DNA of 64,000 bases from Candidatus Bathyarchaeota archaeon (GCA_963780185.1 CAWABA010000006.1:352001-416000), one strand, 5' to 3'; shown: positions 7,180 to 19,854, counted from the first letter of the stretch. A program made the numbers and translations. The notes: generated by a model not told the origin, from the letters alone.

Positions 7180-8853
7180 TTACTTCCTTGACTTTAAGAA
7201 GTAAACTATGCCAATAGCCGCCATGGCACCAAAGAATCCTGCAACAATAAAAAGTGAATATTTGACGTAGAGTGGCTGAGGAATCACAGTTACCACCAGC
7301 TGTTGGCTATCTGCACTGAAAGATGTTTTGGTTTCAAAACAAGTTGCACTAACAACCCACTGTCCACATGATTTAGGTTGGAAGGTTGCCGCAAAAGTAC
7401 CATCACTCTTTACAGCGCAATTTATCGTTTTAGTTGAGTTGACACTGTTGAATTGCACTTGAACTGTGAAGTTATTAAGGCTTGGTTTGAGAACTCCGTC
7501 GATCGTGATGTTTCCGCCAAGGCGAATTTGATCTTTGACCGCCGTTATGTTTAAAATTAACGGCTCTTTTACGGTGTAGTTGCCTGAGACTGCCAAGTTA
7601 TTCTCGAGAACATCAACTGCTTTAATTTCGTAGTTAACCAATGACCCCGTCGGCTGTCCTGGAATTGTGGCATTGCATGCTTGATTGGTGACATTCATAT
7701 TAACATCAGCTTTAGTGATCCAATTGTTGGTTGTGTATGATAGCTGCGCTTTGTCCAAATTAGCGCCGTTTGACCTGTAGGAGATTTCGGTCGGTGCGTT
7801 TGGAGAAACTCTGCTTGGAATAGTCAAGGGCGTCAAGGTGGCTTTTTCAAAATTAGTCTTCAACATAAATGTAACGTTCCCTGAACCCGCCCCGCCCATT
7901 AGCACCATCTGATACAGGTTTGTCCCCGTATTTGGTGAAGTGTAATTTAGAAACATTGATTGTCCCATGCATTCGCCGCTCGCGTAAGCTACGCCAAGGT
8001 CGCTATTAGGCTCAAAGTTGTAGCCGCCGACGGCGCCGCTTAAATTACCATACAAGCCTGGCTCCCATGGCAGTGGAAAAGAGTTTAAGCTCGGAGATCC
8101 TGGGTCATTCATTAAGTAAAGTCTTGCTTGATACATGTCAACCGTTTCTGGAACCTTTACGTATAATTCAACATATGATGCGTTGGTCACAAATTCGTAG
8201 GCCCAGTTTGTGTAGAAACTTGGGCAGCTGTCCTTTAAGCCTTCAACATGACTAGTGTACCAAGTGTCGCACTTAAGGTTCTCAATTATCATAAAGGTAG
8301 CCTGCTGCGCCCCTACACTATCATAAGGATTATTCACTATAACAAAGGAATAGTTGCCTGATTGCGCCGGCACAAAAAGCGGATCATCAACCGTTGTGCC
8401 CAAGTTTGGCGGAAGACCAGCCGACTCCGTGTGCGAACCCACCAAGTTTCCTTGCGGACCATAAACGTAAAAGTTGTAATCTGTCGTCGCCTTGGCTGGA
8501 GGATTTACCCATGATCCATAACAGTAAATATGGTAATTATGGCCTGCTTGCAAGGGGCAGATAATGGTCCAGTTTCCACCGACAGGTATCTGAGAGCCGT
8601 TAACTAGCACTGGGAACATGGGTTTTTCAACGTAAGTAAAGTTTCCTTTAGAGTTGACGTAGGTATGCACGTAGTTGTTATATTCTGAGGTGGTTGTTAA
8701 CTGGAGGCTTGAAGCTGTAGCCATGAATAAGGGACTGGTTATTAAAACTACGATTATTACCAGTGGTGGGATTTTTAGTGGGGGTTTAATTTTTGGGTTC
8801 ATGGCTAACAGCTTGCAAAGCCCGTGGTTCTGTGTATTGTGCGTGCTGGACAA
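7180..8853 (-). CDS. Secreted multi-domain beta-sheet/Ig-like surface protein with C-terminal membrane anchor
   Basis: N-terminal hydrophobic signal, many N-x-S/T sequons, C-terminal TM followed by KSRK; divergent from the pilin operon. Confidence 0.6.
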   Translation of the reverse strand: MSSTHNTQNHGLCKLLAMNPKIKPPLKIPPLVIIVVLITSPLFMATASSLQLTTTSEYNNYVHTYVNSKGNFTYVEKPMFPVLVNGSQIPVGGNWTIICPLQAGHNYHIYCYGSWVNPPAKATTDYNFYVYGPQGNLVGSHTESAGLPPNLGTTVDDPLFVPAQSGNYSFVIVNNPYDSVGAQQATFMIIENLKCDTWYTSHVEGLKDSCPSFYTNWAYEFVTNASYVELYVKVPETVDMYQARLYLMNDPGSPSLNSFPLPWEPGLYGNLSGAVGGYNFEPNSDLGVAYASGECMGQSMFLNYTSPNTGTNLYQMVLMGGAGSGNVTFMLKTNFEKATLTPLTIPSRVSPNAPTEISYRSNGANLDKAQLSYTTNNWITKADVNMNVTNQACNATIPGQPTGSLVNYEIKAVDVLENNLAVSGNYTVKEPLILNITAVKDQIRLGGNITIDGVLKPSLNNFTVQVQFNSVNSTKTINCAVKSDGTFAATFQPKSCGQWVVSATCFETKTSFSADSQQLVVTVIPQPLYVKYSLFIVAGFFGAMAAIGIVYFLKSRK

Positions 8854-9054
8854 TATCTGTTATGAAGGGTGAATCAATATTCTTAAGATACAATTGATTT
8901 CGCAATAGGTTTCTATTGTGTGTTTTGTTGTTTAGAATCTTTGCCGTTTTGGCCCCTTTTTGGGTTAGCAGCGTTTTTGTGTGTCTCTACTGTTTCATAC
9001 AGTTATTCTTAATCAGTAGTTTCAACCAGTATAGTGTGTATTAAATCTCGCTAC

Positions 9055-9070
9055 AGAAGACATTTATAAG
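9055..9070 (+). promoter_or_regulatory. Putative archaeal promoter (BRE + TATA) of the pilin operon
   Basis: Purine-rich AGAAGA followed by CATTTATAAG about 115 nt upstream of the pilin ATG; SD AGGAGGTGA at 9169-9177. Confidence 0.45.
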
Positions 9071-9184
9071 AAAAAGCCTAATTGCTAATTCAATACGAGT
9101 GAGCAAAATGATGAACCTAAAAGTTTACTTAAAATTCCCAATAACTCACTCCGTCCATCCCCCAAAACAGGAGGTGAAAACACA

Positions 9185-9823
9185 ATGAATTACAATTCTT
9201 TCCACAAGTTACTAAAAAACAAGTACGCACTAAGCACAGTCGTGACAACGCTTATTATCCTAGTAATTTCAGTGCTATTGGCAAGCGTAGTCACATACTT
9301 CGCCATCAACGTCGTCAGCACAAGAGTCCAAGAAGAAAGCTTATCCTTAACCGATGCACACGTATGGCTTAACCCCAAAGGAACCCCAGGCGACGCAGAC
9401 TACTCAATGGCTTCACTTATGGTCATCAACACTGGCGGTAGAGACGTTGTCATCAACAAACTAGCCATCAGAGGCCAAGATGCACAGTGGACATCTGACG
9501 CACAATTCATAGTCTATTCGGTAACAGATAACCCTGTAGCCACAGACATGTACTTCCAGCCTACCATGCAAGTTGGAGGAGGAGCGGCAACGCAGACCTT
9601 CTATCTGAATCCTTCTGACACAAGCCAGCCTTCATACTCGTTCAGTTACGCTTCGACAGATATGGTCCTTAGATCAGGATATACAATGCTGCTGTACATA
9701 GTGAACCCTGATAGCATCACTATAAACGACATTGGCTTAACTGTAAGCATAACGCTCTACACAGCGCAAGCGATGTACTACCAAGAATGCAACGTACAAG
9801 CATACGCTTCGATATCAACATAG
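9185..9823 (+). CDS. Archaeal type IV major pilin 1
   Basis: Class III signal peptide KNKYA|LSTVVTTLIILVISVLLA, INTGGRDVVINK core, strong SD. Confidence 0.85.
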   Translation: MNYNSFHKLLKNKYALSTVVTTLIILVISVLLASVVTYFAINVVSTRVQEESLSLTDAHVWLNPKGTPGDADYSMASLMVINTGGRDVVINKLAIRGQDAQWTSDAQFIVYSVTDNPVATDMYFQPTMQVGGGAATQTFYLNPSDTSQPSYSFSYASTDMVLRSGYTMLLYIVNPDSITINDIGLTVSITLYTAQAMYYQECNVQAYASIST

Positions 9824-9912
9824 ACGGCGCCTATAAAGCAACGACTAATAACAGGGGATAATGTTAAGAAAACCCCGATTTTTTGTTTTTTTGTTTCTTT
9901 TTGTTATGTGTA

Positions 9913-9939
9913 TTTTTTTGTATGCACAAGTTTACTTAT
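9913..9939 (+). repeat. Copy 1 of a ~26-bp duplicated intergenic element
   Basis: TTTTTTGTATGCACAAGTTTACTTAT; one mismatch to the copy at 10693-10718. Confidence 0.8.
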
Positions 9940-9969
9940 CTTACTTTTGGTGATTTGTTTTCCAGTGAA

Positions 9970-10542
9970 ATGAAAATGAAAATGAAAAATATGCTTAAGA
10001 ATCGTTTGGCTCTAAGTACGGTCGTTACTACGCTGATTGTTCTAGTTGTTTCAGTGCTTCTCGCAGGAGTCGTTACTTACTATGCTATCAACGTTACCAG
10101 CACTCGGGTTCAGGAAGAAAGCCTATCGCTGACATATCTACACGTTTGGTACAATCCAACTTCAAGTACTGCTCAAGGTGCTTTTGCCATAATTAACACT
10201 GGCGGTCGCGACGTAGTGATAAACAAAATCACAGTCAGAGGCCAATCCGCTGACTTCGGCAATGTATATACCGCGGTACAGTCACCCACCAGTGACCTTG
10301 GATACTCATCTGCACTCAGCGATGTCTACTATGGAACTACGTCTTCCTCTGTCGCCTTAACCAAGGGCACCACTGGCAGTGAAATCACCCTCAAATCAGG
10401 TGATACACTGGTCGTTTACATAAGCAGCCCAGATAGCATCACCATTAATGACATAGGCTTAACCGTTGGAATAACGGTGTTCACTTCGCAGGCAATGTAC
10501 TACCAAGAAGCTAACGTTCAAGCTTACCAGGCAAGCACCTAA
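9970..10542 (+). CDS. Archaeal type IV major pilin 2 (paralog of pilin 1)
   Basis: KNRLA|LSTVVTTLIVLVVSVLLA; shares STRVQEESLSLT, INTGGRDVVINK and PDSITINDIGLTV...QAMYYQE.NVQAY with pilin 1; start is one of the ATGs at 9970/9976/9982/9991. Confidence 0.85.
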   Translation: MKMKMKNMLKNRLALSTVVTTLIVLVVSVLLAGVVTYYAINVTSTRVQEESLSLTYLHVWYNPTSSTAQGAFAIINTGGRDVVINKITVRGQSADFGNVYTAVQSPTSDLGYSSALSDVYYGTTSSSVALTKGTTGSEITLKSGDTLVVYISSPDSITINDIGLTVGITVFTSQAMYYQEANVQAYQAST

Positions 10543-10596
10543 TAAGCTCAATAAGAACCCCCCACACCCCCACATTTCTTTTTCTTTCTCTTTTTT

Positions 10597-10690
10597 TGTT
10601 CATCAAACCATGTGACCCTGACAAGATCGCCATAAATGCCATTGGCTTAACTGTAAGTAAAACGCTCTGCAAGCTCAGAAGATGCATGAG
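10597..10690 (+). pseudogene. Degenerate fragment of a pilin C-terminal region
   Basis: Encodes PDKIAINAIGLTVSKTL versus PDSITINDIGLTVSITL in pilin 1; shares the exact 18-mer CATTGGCTTAACTGTAAG with pilin 1 near 9730. Confidence 0.75.
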
Positions 10691-10692
10691 CA

Positions 10693-10718
10693 TTTTTTGT
10701 ATGCACAAGCTTACTTAT
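10693..10718 (+). repeat. Copy 2 of the ~26-bp duplicated intergenic element
   Basis: TTTTTTGTATGCACAAGCTTACTTAT; both copies are followed by a similar TGAT..GTTTTCC segment. Confidence 0.8.
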
Positions 10719-10839
10719 GGGTTTGATCAGTTTTCCGGCGTTTTTTTTTGCAAGCCATATGTAATTTGTTTATACACACAAACGGCTTAATCCACTCTTC
10801 AAGCTTTTCTATATTAAATATGCTCTTGGGATGATGTGA

Positions 10840-11669
10840 TTGGTTTCAAGCTTGCAAGGTCGACTCTTCAGGAGGTTTGTTCGATCTAAAGTTGCTTTAG
10901 CAATTCCAGTTACATTCCTGATACTTTTGGTTTCAACATTAAGCATTATTTCGGTTACCTATTACTTTTCAGTTGCAAACCTCAACACGCAAAGCAAAGC
11001 TCTTAAAGTTTCGACAGCCCAACAAAACTTTGTGTCTTTGGACAATGTTATTCTTTCAACTTTAGGGCAGCCTGGTTCCTCAGCCACGTTTGACTTAGGA
11101 GATTCAGGCGGAATAACAAACGTTCAACCAACCAGCAATATTCTCACAATCTACGTCAACTATGGTATTGATGAAACTATCTTTAACGCGTCCGTAGGTC
11201 AAGTTGCCTATGAACTTCCGTGTTCAGGCTCAATTGAAACGGGCTTTTACATGGCAGGAGACAGCCAAACAATAACCAAACAAAGCGGCTCTTCGCCAAG
11301 TCAACTTTACATAACAGTGGACTTCATGGGCCTGAGATCCAGTTGCAGTTTCGGCCAACAGTGACGTATGCTGCTGCCGGATTGAAAAATGGTCTAGCCG
11401 TCACCAACATTCGCGTGTATATAGTCAACCTGAACTCTTCAGATCCAATAGCTTTACATGGCGAGCTTCCCCTGCAAATCTTTTGCACGAGTACACAATT
11501 AACAACTGAAACTCTCCAAGTTTCCAATCAACAAAACTTGGTTATAACTTCACAGTTGAACGGTGCCAATGGAAGCGTTTCCATTCCAATCTCAGGCACA
11601 CGTGAAGGCTCAATAATCAACATAGAAACCGTAATTTCTAACATATCAATCGAGAGGCGGATTAGCTAA
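10840..11669 (+). CDS. Minor pilin-like protein (frameshift near 11320-11340)
   Basis: Basic N-terminus RSKVA|LAIPVTFLILLVSTL of class III signal type; ORFs 10840-11364 and 11343-11669 overlap in different frames. Confidence 0.65.
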
Positions 11670-11670
11670 A

Positions 11671-12114
11671 ATGGTCTCGATGATTCCAAGTTACGTGTAC
11701 TCACTGCTTGCAACTCTTATCGTTGGCACAATCATAGTTTCCAGTTGCAGCATTTCAATGGTAAGCATAAAGAATGACGCAGAAAGCCAACAGTTAGCCA
11801 ATGTTGACGAATACGTAGCGACACAAAGCCTAACTCTATTAACTCAAACAACTCAAGATAGACAAAATACAACTCAATTCCTGGATCTTCCTTCACAAAT
11901 TGGAAACCAAGAATACTGGGTATGTATAGCAAACGACTCGTCTAGGGCATGGGTTACATCTGGCTTTGGAGCGACTGCTATCCTAAGTCAACCACAAATA
12001 TACTTGCCAGCTAACGTCGTGGCATCAGGAAGCTTCGTTAGCGCTTGGGGAAGAGCTTTTCTACAATGTTGCTACGAGAACCAAACTGTCACTTTAACAT
12101 TAACTAGTGAGTGA
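11671..12114 (+). CDS. Minor pilin-like / pilus accessory protein
   Basis: N-terminal hydrophobic helix, LPSQIGNQEY motif, operonic position just before the ATPase. Confidence 0.6.
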   Translation: MVSMIPSYVYSLLATLIVGTIIVSSCSISMVSIKNDAESQQLANVDEYVATQSLTLLTQTTQDRQNTTQFLDLPSQIGNQEYWVCIANDSSRAWVTSGFGATAILSQPQIYLPANVVASGSFVSAWGRAFLQCCYENQTVTLTLTSE

Positions 12115-13697
12115 TTGAATTGAAATTAGGCAAAAAGAAAGAAGAAATTCAAGAAAAGGCAAAGGCCTCAGACGAGGAGATGATAGCTTACTTAGGCATT
12201 CAGGGCTACCAAGTGCCTGAAGGCTTTACGCAAGTTGAAAGTTACCCTCTTCATCCACCGTTCTCTTATGCATGGATATTCCAAGACGACTCTGAAGGAA
12301 GCTTCTTCTATGTTGTTGATGAACTTCCCATGTCGAGGGAGGAACGAGAATCCTACAAGCGTCTAAAGAACATTCTTGAATATGAGCTTAAAGCTCCAAG
12401 GATAGATGAAACGCTTGTTGATTCGTTTCACAGACAGGTTCCAGCTATACTAGAAGAGCACCCGGAAGTTTTTGTAGGAACCGACCAAGTAGGTCAAAGA
12501 AAAATTGTCTACTACCTTGAAAAAGACTTAATCGGTTATGGAAGAATCGAAGGGCTCATAAATGATCCGTTAATTGAAGATATAAGCTGTTTAGGCACAA
12601 ACAAATCCGTTTTCATTTATCATAGAAAATTCGCTAACGCGCGAACCAATATTATTTTTTCCGATGAGGAAGAATTGGACGATTTCATAACAAGAATCGT
12701 TCATAGACAAGGCAAACACGTAAGCATAGCTCACCCTATCGTCGACTTAACCCTTCCGGGGAAACACAGACTTGCAATATCCTTCGGAAAAGAAACAACT
12801 CCAGCCGGAACAAGTTTCACTATAAGAAAATTCAAAGAAGACCCATTGACCATCGTAGATTTGATAATCAACGAAACAATTGACGAGTCGATCGCAGCGT
12901 ATCTTTGGATGCTGATGGAAAATAAAATGTCGGTCATGATTGTAGGACCAACAGGTGCAGGAAAAACAACCGCCTTGAATGCTATTGCATGCTTGGTTCG
13001 ACCGGATTTCAAGATGATCTCGGTTGAAGAAGTTCAAGAAGTTAACTTGCCTCAAGAAAACTGGGTGTCAACTGTTGCACGGACAGGCTTCGGAGGGGAC
13101 AGCACAGGCGAAGTTACACTTTACGATTTGATAAAGTCAGCGGTTAGGCACAGACCAGCATTAATCCTTGTAGGCGAAATCAGGGGCGAAGAGGCGTACG
13201 TTCTTTTTCAGGCATTAGCAACGGGACATGGCGGATTATGTACAATGCACGCAGACGATGTGGAAACGGTTATTAAACGGCTAACACAGCCGCCTATGAA
13301 TATTCCCCAAAACATCTTGTCACTTATGAACTGCGTAATAGTTGTCAAGCAAGTCGACATCTCACGAATCAACTTGCAAGAACGAAAAATGTCCTCCAGA
13401 AAATTTGTTGAAGTCGCCGAAATCGATAACGAAGGTGCTCCGCACGAAGTGTTTTATTGGAACATGTCCTCAGACACTTTCCAACAAGATCTAGAAAAAA
13501 GCCTTTTACTGGCAAAGATAGCCAAAAACCTCAGTGTTCCCCTAAGCGTTGTCCAACAGGAGTTTGAACGAAGAAAACAAATTATGTTAAGCATGGTTGA
13601 GAAAAATCTTCGTGACTTTAAAAGCGTCCACAAAGCACTAAATAGTTTACTTAACCTTGAGGATTTAGCCAACAAAGAACATCCCGAGGCCCAATAA
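12111..13697 (+). CDS. Type II/IV secretion system (pilus assembly) ATPase, PilB/FlaI/VirB11 family
   Basis: Walker A GPTGAGKTT, FTIRKF, EEVQE Asp box, Walker B ILVGEIRG, His box TGHGGLCTMHA. Confidence 0.95.
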   Translation: MIELKLGKKKEEIQEKAKASDEEMIAYLGIQGYQVPEGFTQVESYPLHPPFSYAWIFQDDSEGSFFYVVDELPMSREERESYKRLKNILEYELKAPRIDETLVDSFHRQVPAILEEHPEVFVGTDQVGQRKIVYYLEKDLIGYGRIEGLINDPLIEDISCLGTNKSVFIYHRKFANARTNIIFSDEEELDDFITRIVHRQGKHVSIAHPIVDLTLPGKHRLAISFGKETTPAGTSFTIRKFKEDPLTIVDLIINETIDESIAAYLWMLMENKMSVMIVGPTGAGKTTALNAIACLVRPDFKMISVEEVQEVNLPQENWVSTVARTGFGGDSTGEVTLYDLIKSAVRHRPALILVGEIRGEEAYVLFQALATGHGGLCTMHADDVETVIKRLTQPPMNIPQNILSLMNCVIVVKQVDISRINLQERKMSSRKFVEVAEIDNEGAPHEVFYWNMSSDTFQQDLEKSLLLAKIAKNLSVPLSVVQQEFERRKQIMLSMVEKNLRDFKSVHKALNSLLNLEDLANKEHPEAQ

Positions 13698-13700
13698 CCA

Positions 13701-15215
13701 ATGCCTGCTTTTGGCGGTTTTATCGGCAAAATTTTCGGTTCACTATCTTCTGCTACTAGCGAAGAAAAGGAGAAAACCGAGCAGGAACTGCCATTTGCAG
13801 TAATGATTTTCACGCTTATGGCTGCAAGCGGAATATCCCCTTATGATAGTTGGAAAAAAATGCGAAAGCTTGCTTTCCTTCCAATATTCAAAAAAGAAGC
13901 AGACGAACTTGTTCGTCAGGTTGAAGTTTTGGGCAAGGACCCGTTATCCGTAATGCAGGCGCGTGCAGAAACCACAACCTCCAAGTTATACAGAAATTTT
14001 TTGGGCGGCTTTGTTTCTTCAATTAGAAGTGGCGGACAACTGTTTGACTTCATGAAAAGTCAGCTGAAAGCAATTTTTGAACTGCGATACATTAATCTGA
14101 ATCGGTCAATTGAGAAAGTCGCCACTTTGGTTGAAGCATACTCGGTTATGCTAATTGTCGTATTATGCTCGTATATTCTTTTTGTTGTCTTGGCATCATC
14201 AAATGTTATGTCACTACTGTCAAATAGTTCAGCTTCCACCTCGCCTACACTTTCTTACTTAATAGCGTTTGTTATTATGCCTGTAATGTCAGGGATCTTT
14301 ATTTTGATGGCGCATAATCTTCAAAAAAGCGCTTTTCCCAATCTAAAAGACCTTTATAAAAAAGCTTTAATCCTCGTGCCACCCGCATTCGTCGTAATAG
14401 CCCTCATCGCAATGGTCCCTTCGTTATCTAGAGCAGTTAGCCCCATAGGATTACCTGCTGTTACCACAATAGTTTTAGTCGCTTGTTCATTACCGATTGC
14501 TATTCAGTATCGGCGCATTGCAAAGTTAAACTATAATGCTGAAGAATCACTTCCTAGTTTTATAAGAGAAGTAACCGAATCACAAAAAACAGGGCTTTCA
14601 CCAGAAAAAAGCATAGTGCAAGCTACAAAACGCAAAGATTACGGGCCCTTCTCCAAATTTTTAGATTTAATGCGTAGTCAAATCGAATGGGGCGTACCTT
14701 TACGCAAAACCATTGATAACTTTCGTAAGGAAATTCGAAGTTGGTTTGTCACAATTAACTTTTCTATGCTGGTGGAAACCATTGAAGTCGGCGGTAACTC
14801 AATCCAATCGCTAGAAATACTTTCTGAATATAGTGAAAAAGAACATGAATTACAAATCAATCGGCGTGAACTTTTGAGACCTTACATACTTCTTGCTTCC
14901 ATGTGGAGTGCATTAATAGCTGTCACAACAACCATAGTTGGCTTAACTACTAACTTAACCAATAGCATGATGACAACTATTGACGGTACAGACCTTGGAG
15001 CGGTCGCTTCAATAGCTATGGCTCCTCAGCTTACCCTTTTCTCTGTAGGCATAATCATTCAATGCTGGATCTCAGGGTTCTTCATCGGAAAAATCAGCGA
15101 AGGCAACTTCGGCGCCGGATTTAAACACGCAGCATTGCTTGCAACAATCGCATTCGTGTCTTTGGTTCTCTCTAAACTTCTTCTTTCAGGCATTTTTGGG
15201 AAAATGCTCGGTTAA
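13701..15215 (+). CDS. Type IV pilus membrane platform protein (T2SSF/TadC/PilC/FlaJ family)
   Basis: Two T2SSF repeats (ELPFA...ASGISP; LPSFIREVTESQKTGLS), multiple TMs, GKISEG..GAG motif near the C-terminus. Confidence 0.9.
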   Translation: MPAFGGFIGKIFGSLSSATSEEKEKTEQELPFAVMIFTLMAASGISPYDSWKKMRKLAFLPIFKKEADELVRQVEVLGKDPLSVMQARAETTTSKLYRNFLGGFVSSIRSGGQLFDFMKSQLKAIFELRYINLNRSIEKVATLVEAYSVMLIVVLCSYILFVVLASSNVMSLLSNSSASTSPTLSYLIAFVIMPVMSGIFILMAHNLQKSAFPNLKDLYKKALILVPPAFVVIALIAMVPSLSRAVSPIGLPAVTTIVLVACSLPIAIQYRRIAKLNYNAEESLPSFIREVTESQKTGLSPEKSIVQATKRKDYGPFSKFLDLMRSQIEWGVPLRKTIDNFRKEIRSWFVTINFSMLVETIEVGGNSIQSLEILSEYSEKEHELQINRRELLRPYILLASMWSALIAVTTTIVGLTTNLTNSMMTTIDGTDLGAVASIAMAPQLTLFSVGIIIQCWISGFFIGKISEGNFGAGFKHAALLATIAFVSLVLSKLLLSGIFGKMLG

Positions 15216-18978: not shown

Positions 18979-19854
18979 TCAAGTCAGTTTGGAGAATAGC
19001 ATTCGAAGAACTTTAACGAAGGCACTGTAGTTTGTCCATATGGCTGTTGTTTTATCCTTCTTCTTCACATCTTCATCATTCGCTGCGTCTTCATGGAATG
19101 CAATGAGAACTTCTTTATTGTCAGAAATCATAATGCACGGCAAGTTTTGTTCATCCGCAATTCGGAGAGATTCACTTAGCCACTGCAGTTGCCCGATGAA
19201 ATAAGCACTTTTCAATGAGTTATCCGTAACCAACGTAACATTCACTTTGTCAGACCCACTTTTTAGTTTGTCAATGAAATCGCTATAAAACAGCTGGGAA
19301 AGGTAGTCGGCTGAAGCGAACACTTGGAATTCCTTTTCTGTTCTTTCAAGTAATTCATTAGCTTTCATGAGTACCTGCTGTTCACCCTCAAGCATCTGGA
19401 AAAGCTCTTTTTTCGCAGGTGTAGCTTTCGGCTGAGGTATGGATCGCCAAAGTTCTACGAGGCTTGTTTTTTCTTGTTCTAATAACTTGATTTTTATTTT
19501 CTGTGCATCTACAAGTAAATCAATAGCTTTGTCCAATGGCACAGCTGTGAATTTTAGAGGTTTCTCAAAAATGGAAAAAACTACGCCTCTTTTTTCCAGG
19601 TCTCGCAAGATTCTGTAAGTCTCAGTTCGATGAAGCGAAATTGCTTCTGCTATTTCTCCTGCCTTCATGTCACCTACTCTGGCAAGATGCAAGTAAACTT
19701 TAATCTCGTTTTTAAGCAGTCCAAATCTTGAAAGTGTTTCTTCAATGGTTAATAATTGATCATTGTATGATTGATCTTTCTTCACCGTTTTCCAGGATCC
19801 ATTTTGCTTATCGTACACTTTCACTAATTCTTGTTTTTCCATTGTCAACGCCAA
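18979..19854 (-). CDS. TrmB-family transcriptional regulator
   Basis: FGLLKNEIKVYLHL...AGEIAEAISLHRTETYRILRDLEKRG...KPLKFTAVP wHTH plus C-terminal PLD-like effector domain (MISDNKEVL). Confidence 0.85.
   Translation of the reverse strand: MALTMEKQELVKVYDKQNGSWKTVKKDQSYNDQLLTIEETLSRFGLLKNEIKVYLHLARVGDMKAGEIAEAISLHRTETYRILRDLEKRGVVFSIFEKPLKFTAVPLDKAIDLLVDAQKIKIKLLEQEKTSLVELWRSIPQPKATPAKKELFQMLEGEQQVLMKANELLERTEKEFQVFASADYLSQLFYSDFIDKLKSGSDKVNVTLVTDNSLKSAYFIGQLQWLSESLRIADEQNLPCIMISDNKEVLIAFHEDAANDEDVKKKDKTTAIWTNYSAFVKVLRMLFSKLT

Follow-up and report, generated by a model that had tools for sequence, protein, structure and literature searches.

Pilin variation in Neisseria draws on silent cassettes, in the pilE/pilS system. 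For archaea, the literature that we searched contained no description of such a cassette. In its main text, a survey published in 2026 (PMC13705601) describes multiple pilin genes in the loci for archaeal type 4 filaments, as well as standalone pilins; it names Bathyarchaeota for Aap-like and subsystem 4A loci, and uses neither the term promoter nor the term pseudogene. For haloarchaeal archaellins, the passages on ecoparalogs in two reports describe strains and species that hold different sets of paralogues (PMC6528647, PMC7349177).

We analyzed a 64,000-nt stretch of a Candidatus Bathyarchaeota genome (G000:C6:352001-416000; hereafter the window) from an assembly of 2,752,879 bases in 13 contigs with a contamination estimate of 3.06%. 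The genome is of the Bathyarchaeota type, and the window contains one of its loci, an archaeal type IV pilus operon. Spanning 9185-15215 on the plus strand, the operon encodes two major pilins, three small pilin-like proteins, an ATPase, and a platform protein:

9121..9131, plus strand: AAGTTTACTTA, upstream of pilin 1 and the same as the 3′ core of the 26-mer described below; a possible TATA-like box of the pilin 1 promoter

9185..9823, plus strand: pilin 1, first-type major pilin of 212 aa, class III signal ...KNKYA/LSTVVTTL (slash, predicted cleavage site)

9824..9913, plus strand: pilin 1-pilin 2 spacer, which contains a C-run and several T-runs; possibly terminator-like, as such runs are in archaea

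9970..10542, plus strand: pilin 2, second-type major pilin, signal ...KNRLA/LSTVVTTL

10543..10600, plus strand: tail after pilin 2, with stop codons, C-runs, and then a T-rich run; terminator-like, as behind the last pilin gene of relatives

10840-11364, 11343-11669, and 11671-12114, plus strand: three small pilin-like genes, syntenic in relatives

12111-13697, plus strand: assembly ATPase (Pfam T2SSE, E 9.5e-33), FlaI-like

13701-15215, plus strand: platform protein (T2SSF, E 4.7e-16), UpsF-like

Both major pilins carry a class III signal, KNKYA/LSTVVTTLIILVISVLLA in pilin 1 and KNRLA/LSTVVTTLIVLVVSVLLA in pilin 2, with the basic residue of the leader at position -3, not -2. The motif is present in all pilin copies of the relatives. 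Against the Pfam family Pilin_N (PF07790; curated cut-off 25.2 bits), pilin 1 scored 24.9 bits (E 3.9e-5) and pilin 2 scored 20.1 bits (E 0.0012), and the three small pilin-like proteins matched no Pfam family. As expected for pilins, the genes for an ATPase and a platform protein are adjacent, and a candidate prepilin peptidase (Peptidase_A24, 44.3 bits, above the cut-off) is encoded elsewhere in the genome, at G000:C6:218455-218784. Like Ups- and Aap-type multi-pilin loci, this one combines an ATPase, one platform protein, and class III signal pilins in a row with standalone pilins elsewhere. Unlike Ups, its NCBIfam matches (UpsA, UpsF, and FlaI-like) are all weak and fall far under the equivalog cut-offs, so that by this test it is not a Ups system; the UpsA match of pilin 1 is weak and that of pilin 2 (E 2.5e-6) is under the cut-off.

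Pilin 1 orthologues are the first gene in the arrays of relatives. A Shine-Dalgarno-like GGAGGTGA precedes the pilin 1 ATG. Further upstream, 9111-9131 aligns locally with 9922-9938, within the element in front of pilin 2, at 16 of 21 positions with an exact run of 11 nt; AAGTTTACTTA showed no conservation upstream of pilin 1 in the relatives that we compared. Pilin 2 has in-frame ATGs at 9970, 9976, 9982, and 9991, and the relatives suggest that its start may be 9976 or 9982. The spacer at 9824-9913 is related to the tail after pilin 2. In relatives, a C-run (CCCCCC..) followed by a T-rich run lies behind every last-pilin gene, a conserved tail that may be a terminator. The genome also contains a third intact pilin gene of the pilin 1 type, on another contig (G000:C4:22410-23039, minus strand), whose product is 76% identical to pilin 1.

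Behind pilin 2 lies a further, incomplete pilin copy:

10609..10684, plus strand: pilin-1-type 3′ fragment, a pseudogene relic; its pilin frame reads CDPDKIAINAIGLTVSKTLC, with neither a start codon nor a signal peptide

The original prediction had described this piece as a promoterless match to the 3′ part of pilin 1 that contains an exact 18-nt run and is nearer to pilin 1 than to the adjacent pilin 2. Both descriptions are correct. By local alignment, the 76 nt of the fragment match pilin 1 at 62 of 79 positions with 3 gap columns (9697-9775 versus 10609-10684), and an ungapped core (9705-9761 versus 10615-10671) is identical at 47 of 57 positions (82%). The exact 18-mer, CATTGGCTTAACTGTAAG, is found at 9730-9747 and 10640-10657. 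With up to three mismatches allowed, these were its only two matches in the window; shuffled sequences gave a mean of 0.08 matches, and 0 of 100 shuffles gave two or more. The best match of the fragment to pilin 2 is only 40 of 56, and in a codon-registered block it agrees with pilin 1 at 44 of 54 positions and with pilin 2 at 38 of 54. A repeat search returned the core as a 57-nt family with three copies, the third of which, in pilin 2 (10427-10483), is 77% identical to the copy in pilin 1. The fragment also has the pilin-1-type signature GLTVS.TL, not GLTVGITV. To the pilin-1-type gene on contig C4, its identity is 79% over 43 nt, lower than to pilin 1.

Several properties of the fragment differ from those of the intact genes. 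The only frame that crosses it is a 64-aa frame beginning with TTG, which has no signal peptide. Over 18 whole codons, the fragment differs from pilin 1 by 10 base changes that yield 5 residue changes, and its replacements PDS to PDK and ND to NA fall on residues that are invariant in all pilin copies compared. Over the same codons, pilin 1 and pilin 2 differ by 12 bases, 9 of them at third positions, and by only 3 residues. Lacking a start and a signal, and under relaxed constraint relative to the intact copies, the fragment is a pseudogene: it is dead, a decayed 3′ end of a pilin-1-type gene. It covers the conserved C-terminal PDSITINDIGLTV block and not the variable part of the pilin, and it is the single fragment of its kind in the genome. 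We infer that it is a duplication relic without a programmed role, which is one of the interpretations that the original prediction had offered.

A 26-nt element follows the fragment, as it follows pilin 1:

9914..9939, plus strand: E1, copy 1 of the element; the pilin 2 upstream module, consisting of a T-run, ATGCACAAG, and TTTACTTAT; by position and conservation, a putative core promoter of the BRE/TATA type

10693..10718, plus strand: E2, copy 2 of the element; the pilin 2 upstream module again, here as an orphan that no pilin gene follows

10741..10749, plus strand: run of nine Ts (T9) just downstream of where an E2 transcript would start; it could stop or weaken such a transcript

E1 and E2 are identical at 25 of 26 positions; E1 begins at 9914, one position later than first given. 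No match is expected in the window from shuffled sequences, and a scan of the whole assembly for the 26-mer with up to three mismatches, as the original prediction had proposed, returned E1 and E2 only (reversed control, 0). The prediction also held that a unit of pilin 3′ end plus element occurs twice. Both halves are indeed repeated, but their spacing is not: the element lies 152 nt from the pilin 3′ part after pilin 1 (9762-9913) and 21 nt from it in the second copy (10672-10692), where about 130 nt (9776-9905, comprising the pilin 1 stop codon, the C-run, and T-runs) are absent. Beyond the 26-mer, weak similarity continues to approximately 9975 and 10764 (56 of 80 with gaps), and part of it can be aligned to the ancestral intergenic region in relatives too.

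Because the window comes from a metagenome, a misjoin or a collapsed repeat could in principle have created the second copy. The assembly is in 13 contigs with some estimated contamination, and no independent reads cover the place. However, the copies differ by about 20% and by the 130-nt gap, which indicates decay and not a duplicated read path. The piece also lies within a 945-kb contig, and on each side the adjoining sequence aligns with the relatives' intergenic region. We regard an assembly artifact as barely credible. A search for sequencing runs returned one DNA run and no RNA run. In the contigs of this peat-metagenome DNA run (X1; 9% of sampled words), 10 contig pieces fell on 9000-11400 and left 10539-10781 uncovered. 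Most were less than 90% alike and came from the conserved parts of relatives; one 176-nt contig was identical at 10353-10528.

To place the element, we compared 120 genomes of the genus, including this one; the 119 congeners all belong to other species. Here, the module consists of a T-run, AYGCACAAG, and the TATA-like TTTACTTAT and ends about 25 nt ahead of the ribosome-binding region. In the relatives inspected, where it precedes second-type pilin genes, it is built from a T-run, AYGCACA(A/C), and a box such as GTTTACTTATC, followed after approximately 20 nt by a ribosome-binding-like AGGAG or AGTGA before the ATG. In the loci examined, YRCACA(A/C) occurs 65-90 nt upstream of the anchor in 19 of 22 pilin genes of the NR(L/W)A type, and the three that lack it are first-in-array genes. 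The sequence AYGCACAAGNTTACTTAT, with at most one mismatch, was found at 57 places in 39 of the 120 genomes (reversed control, 4). Where a locus has two or three copies of the module, they are spaced 574-986 nt apart, about one pilin gene per period.

A class III signal lies at +83 to +100 nt behind 33 of the 38 module sites examined, which come from 30 loci. Among the five exceptions, two are one-mismatch hits without a T-run (G017 and G096), two lie less than 100 nt from a contig end (G071 and G019:C10), and the fifth is E2, the only orphan in full context among the 38. By these comparisons of sequence, the 26-mer is a genus-conserved upstream module of the second-type pilin gene. It holds a fixed position upstream of the gene it appears to serve, is conserved among orthologues, and lies directly behind the T-runs of the preceding gene; we therefore read it as the probable core promoter of the second-type pilin gene, of the BRE/TATA type, perhaps with a regulator site in ACGCACAA. 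The box TTTACTTAT is only TATA-like. Upstream of the genome's own tRNA genes, YTTAWAW boxes occur at about -45 to -36 in 13 of 41 cases, compared with 62 of 2000 at random, which lends weak support since the counted pattern was written to admit TTACTT.

Two other assignments were considered and dropped. We first took TTTTCAGTGAA for an initiator element but now assign it to a ribosome-binding region, since AGGAG occupies this spot in relatives. We also abandoned a genome-wide regulon: patterns joining a CACAA core to a TTAWT box returned either the operon's own module or numbers at control level (1 versus 0, 5 versus 3, and 5 versus 6).

The combination of fragment and E2 is specific to this genome among those searched. 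When we searched the 119 congeners with 10543-10840, none gave a match that joined the two; the fragment part matched only intact pilin-1-type genes, and the E2 part matched only pilin promoters. When the spacers that separate the last pilin gene from the first minor-pilin gene were aligned for ten genomes, approximately 85 nt (the fragment) and 20 nt (the E2 core) proved to be extra here only, and the tail after the pilin and the operon module align with those of the nine congeners on both sides of the extra piece. Metagenome scans for a pilin 3′ motif followed after 25-55 nt by the element, or for the element followed after 35-65 nt by the minor-pilin module, each gave no hits. We dropped the suggestion that relatives retain an older, core-deleted remnant of the element in this spacer (for example TTTTGTGCTTATCCAA in G003), as the match is short and T-rich.

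The explanation that we favor, and consider likely, is that the piece is a relic of pilin-array turnover, in which a partial duplication lost its pilin body and left a dead fragment and an orphan promoter. A stretch that begins inside the 3′ end of a pilin-1-type gene, crosses the spacer, and reaches the promoter of pilin 2 would have been copied behind pilin 2, most plausibly in a partial tandem duplication that included another copy of pilin 2. Later deletions would have removed approximately 130 nt of spacer and the pilin body. What remained would be the dead fragment and a promoter copy 56 nt before the minor-pilin operon's own module. The order of the duplication and deletions is our reconstruction; insertion of a short copied patch is a possible alternative origin.

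Several observations count against this history. It requires at least three events, and E2 is better kept than its flanks, as described below. In addition, the fragment is about as close to the pilin 1 of G003, G020, and G009 (42-43 of 54) as to its own pilin 1 (44 of 54), whereas the pilin 1 orthologues of those three genomes agree with pilin 1 here at 49-50 of 54; the difference is too small to date the event or to place its origin at this site. On the other hand, the fragment is still approximately 80% alike, and neutral spacers align between species only at conserved modules. The fragment is therefore probably younger than the species split, a conclusion that is an argument and not a measurement.

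As in other duplication relics of tandem arrays, there is a partial copy without a start, relaxed constraint, internal deletions, absence from the relatives searched, and a variable array size; the usual relic differs from this one in that the orphan promoter here is unusually well kept (25 of 26) and points into the next operon. The locus also resembles haloarchaeal archaellin ecoparalogs, as those passages describe them, in that archaeal filament genes are kept as paralogues. Those are intact, differently regulated genes, whereas the extra copy here is a dead fragment. The fragment itself carries little weight, being a leftover of gene duplication and loss, a common process.

Turnover of the array is visible in relatives. 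The original prediction had called for a comparison of array sizes: among 13 relatives with an array beside the operon, two have one pilin gene, seven have two, three have three, and one array is cut by a contig end. Neighboring second-type units are identical at 648 of 648 positions in G040, 638 of 644 in G024, and 636 of 646 in G114, one of which belongs to another family of the order. Other neighboring units agree at 604 of 636, 539 of 604, 539 of 606, 464 of 528, 497 of 586, and 418 of 519. This spread, from 80% to 100% identity, indicates duplications of several ages, or copies that have been homogenized. In G024 and G040, the repeated unit extends from the T-run and module to the T-rich tail past the stop codon, and the T-rich ends may have supplied short homologies for duplication. 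Whole promoter-pilin-terminator tandem duplicates, 98.5-100% identical, can be seen at 2363-3698 of L027 (G024), 2719-4060 of L033 (G040), and 1500-2875 of L074 (G114).

Loss and movement are apparent as well. Of 33 pilin frames behind a module, 9 are interrupted (<140 aa), although some may be assembly errors. In G073:C20 (L052, 1500-2560), two second-type copies lack the same internal piece of the conserved N-terminal domain, their 3′ ends are cut at ...SAQ, and the second of them runs straight into the spacer that precedes the operon module. In G004:C1 (L005, 1440-2140), a second-type pilin stands alone, away from any pilus operon, flanked by one radical-SAM-like and one histidine-kinase-like gene. 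Ahead of this pilin are a pilin-1-type 3′ fragment, which over 47 nt is 94% identical to pilin 1 of our genome, then a different internal deletion, and the module. This arrangement has the look of a unit that was relocated, and it implies that the unit of pilin 1 3′ end, shortened spacer, promoter, and pilin 2 arose at least twice. A scan of genome contigs for a pilin 3′ motif followed after 25-55 nt by the element found one locus (L045), at a different place and structured as in the G004:C1 unit.

These cases point to ongoing duplication and loss of pilin genes in the group. Such fast turnover, with one to three genes per array, near-identical tandems, truncated copies, and a relocated unit, is relevant to the diversification of surface filaments in archaea of sediments and peat. 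A more far-reaching version would have pilin units repeatedly duplicated, deleted, and moved by way of their T-rich ends and promoter, pilin copy number varying within populations, and E2, as a strong promoter that is still active and that one such deletion fused to the minor-pilin/assembly operon, having rewired expression of that operon. We consider this combination quite improbable.

The original prediction had also raised the possibility that the repeats excise, amplify, or exchange pilin 2, or that the fragment is a recombination cassette, with pilin copy-number or antigenic variation as the result; in such a scheme the fragment could act as a silent donor for pilin variation. Direct repeats 779 nt apart do flank pilin 2, the copy number of second-type pilins varies across species, with the near-identical tandem copies in G024, G040, and G114, and, as in Neisseria pilE/pilS, a promoterless partial copy lies beside an expressed pilin gene. 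However, a silent-cassette system would comprise several promoterless partial copies with variable parts, whereas this genome has one degenerate fragment of a conserved 3′ block with damaging replacements. Nor does a four-run, G-rich quadruplex motif of the Neisseria type adjoin the fragment: the minus strand at 10559-10574 has two G-runs only. The longest exact runs shared by the copies are just 18 and 17 nt, and no recombinase family was found among the 12 neighboring proteins scanned, which include DUF362, a radical SAM/B12 protein, DUF6541, a TrmB-family regulator, a phosphorylase, and a phosphoribosyltransferase. Moreover, the recent duplications in relatives are of whole promoter-to-terminator units, not exchanges with fragments. 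Programmed or high-frequency recombination is thus very unlikely. Rare deletion of pilin 2 could occur in principle, as with any short repeat, and amplification or deletion of pilin 2 survives from the prediction as an evolutionary change in the copy number of pilin-2-type genes between species.

The prediction's other proposal was a regulatory site shared by pilin 2 and the minor-pilin operon. The operon is preceded by a conserved sequence:

10757..10819, plus strand: upstream region of the minor-pilin/assembly operon, with the core ATACACACAAACGGCTTAATCC at 10769-10793 and TCTATATTAAAT at 10808-10819

This region was matched in approximately 37 of the 119 other genus genomes. Its core shares the build of the pilin module (YRCACAA, a few bases, and CTTAWTCC), and the two modules resemble each other within a species, for example in G008 and G024, such that they co-vary. 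Pilus genes could thereby have a promoter or regulator site in common. The idea of a shared site was borne out insofar as the 26-mer is the upstream module of second-type pilins, but not in its location: the shared site ahead of the minor-pilin operon is the conserved module at 10769-10793, and E2 is an extra. Together, the 26-mer and the related operon module are a specific candidate for a promoter or a regulator site in a genus of uncultured archaea for which no genetic system exists.

As E2 lies 56 nt ahead of this module and is directed at the operon, we considered whether it has been captured, that is, whether it is active and kept by selection because it gives the minor-pilin, ATPase, and platform genes an additional promoter of the pilin type and alters their expression. 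E2 is better kept than its surroundings, at 25 of 26 versus 62 of 79 and 47 of 57 (78-82%). Were decay equal, the chance of at least 25 of 26 would be 0.015-0.043 in this post hoc test, a hint of selection on E2 or of gene conversion from E1, which would explain the pattern equally well. E2 has lost none of the strongly conserved positions of the module, and the T-run, GCACAAG, and TTACTTAT are all present in it. Its deviations, GCTTAC for GTTTAC and TATG for TATC, are both found upstream of the pilin genes of relatives (G089, G073, and G019). With its conserved positions intact and its deviations seen elsewhere in the genus, E2 may not be inert; the transcription machinery may still recognize it and start transcripts that run toward the minor-pilin operon. 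Against capture, none of the 119 relatives has E2 at this place, the operon already has its own conserved module, and the T9 run is located exactly where an E2 transcript would begin. T-rich sequence occurs at the place of the T9 run in relatives too. We judge capture to be unlikely and prefer to see E2, like the fragment, as a remnant of array turnover. If E2 is active, the locus would illustrate in nature, on a small scale, how a deletion can lead to the capture of a promoter.

Several minor features of the region deserve mention. The last codons of the pilin genes (..AACGTACAAGCATAC.. in 9787-9812 and ..TTCAAGCTTAC.. in 10517-10531) resemble the core of the promoter module at 9922-9936 (ACGCACAAGTTTAC), and MAFFT aligned E2 to the coding end of pilin 1. 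This likeness may be due to chance or to an old relationship. An Rfam scan of 8800-11000 at E values up to 1 gave no matches. Divergent from the pilus operon, on the minus strand at 7180-8853, is a gene for a 557-aa protein with a hydrophobic stretch at both its N terminus and its C terminus; it matched no Pfam or NCBIfam family and may be a surface protein or adhesin. Approximately 4 kb downstream of the operon, the minus strand encodes a TrmB-family transcription regulator (18979-19854), a candidate regulator by position only. Finally, the beginning of pilin 2 (9970-9993) is a 6-nt tandem repeat, with three ATGAAA units followed by AATATG (MKMKMKNM). In relatives the repeat has one or two units, such that the length of the leader varies across species.
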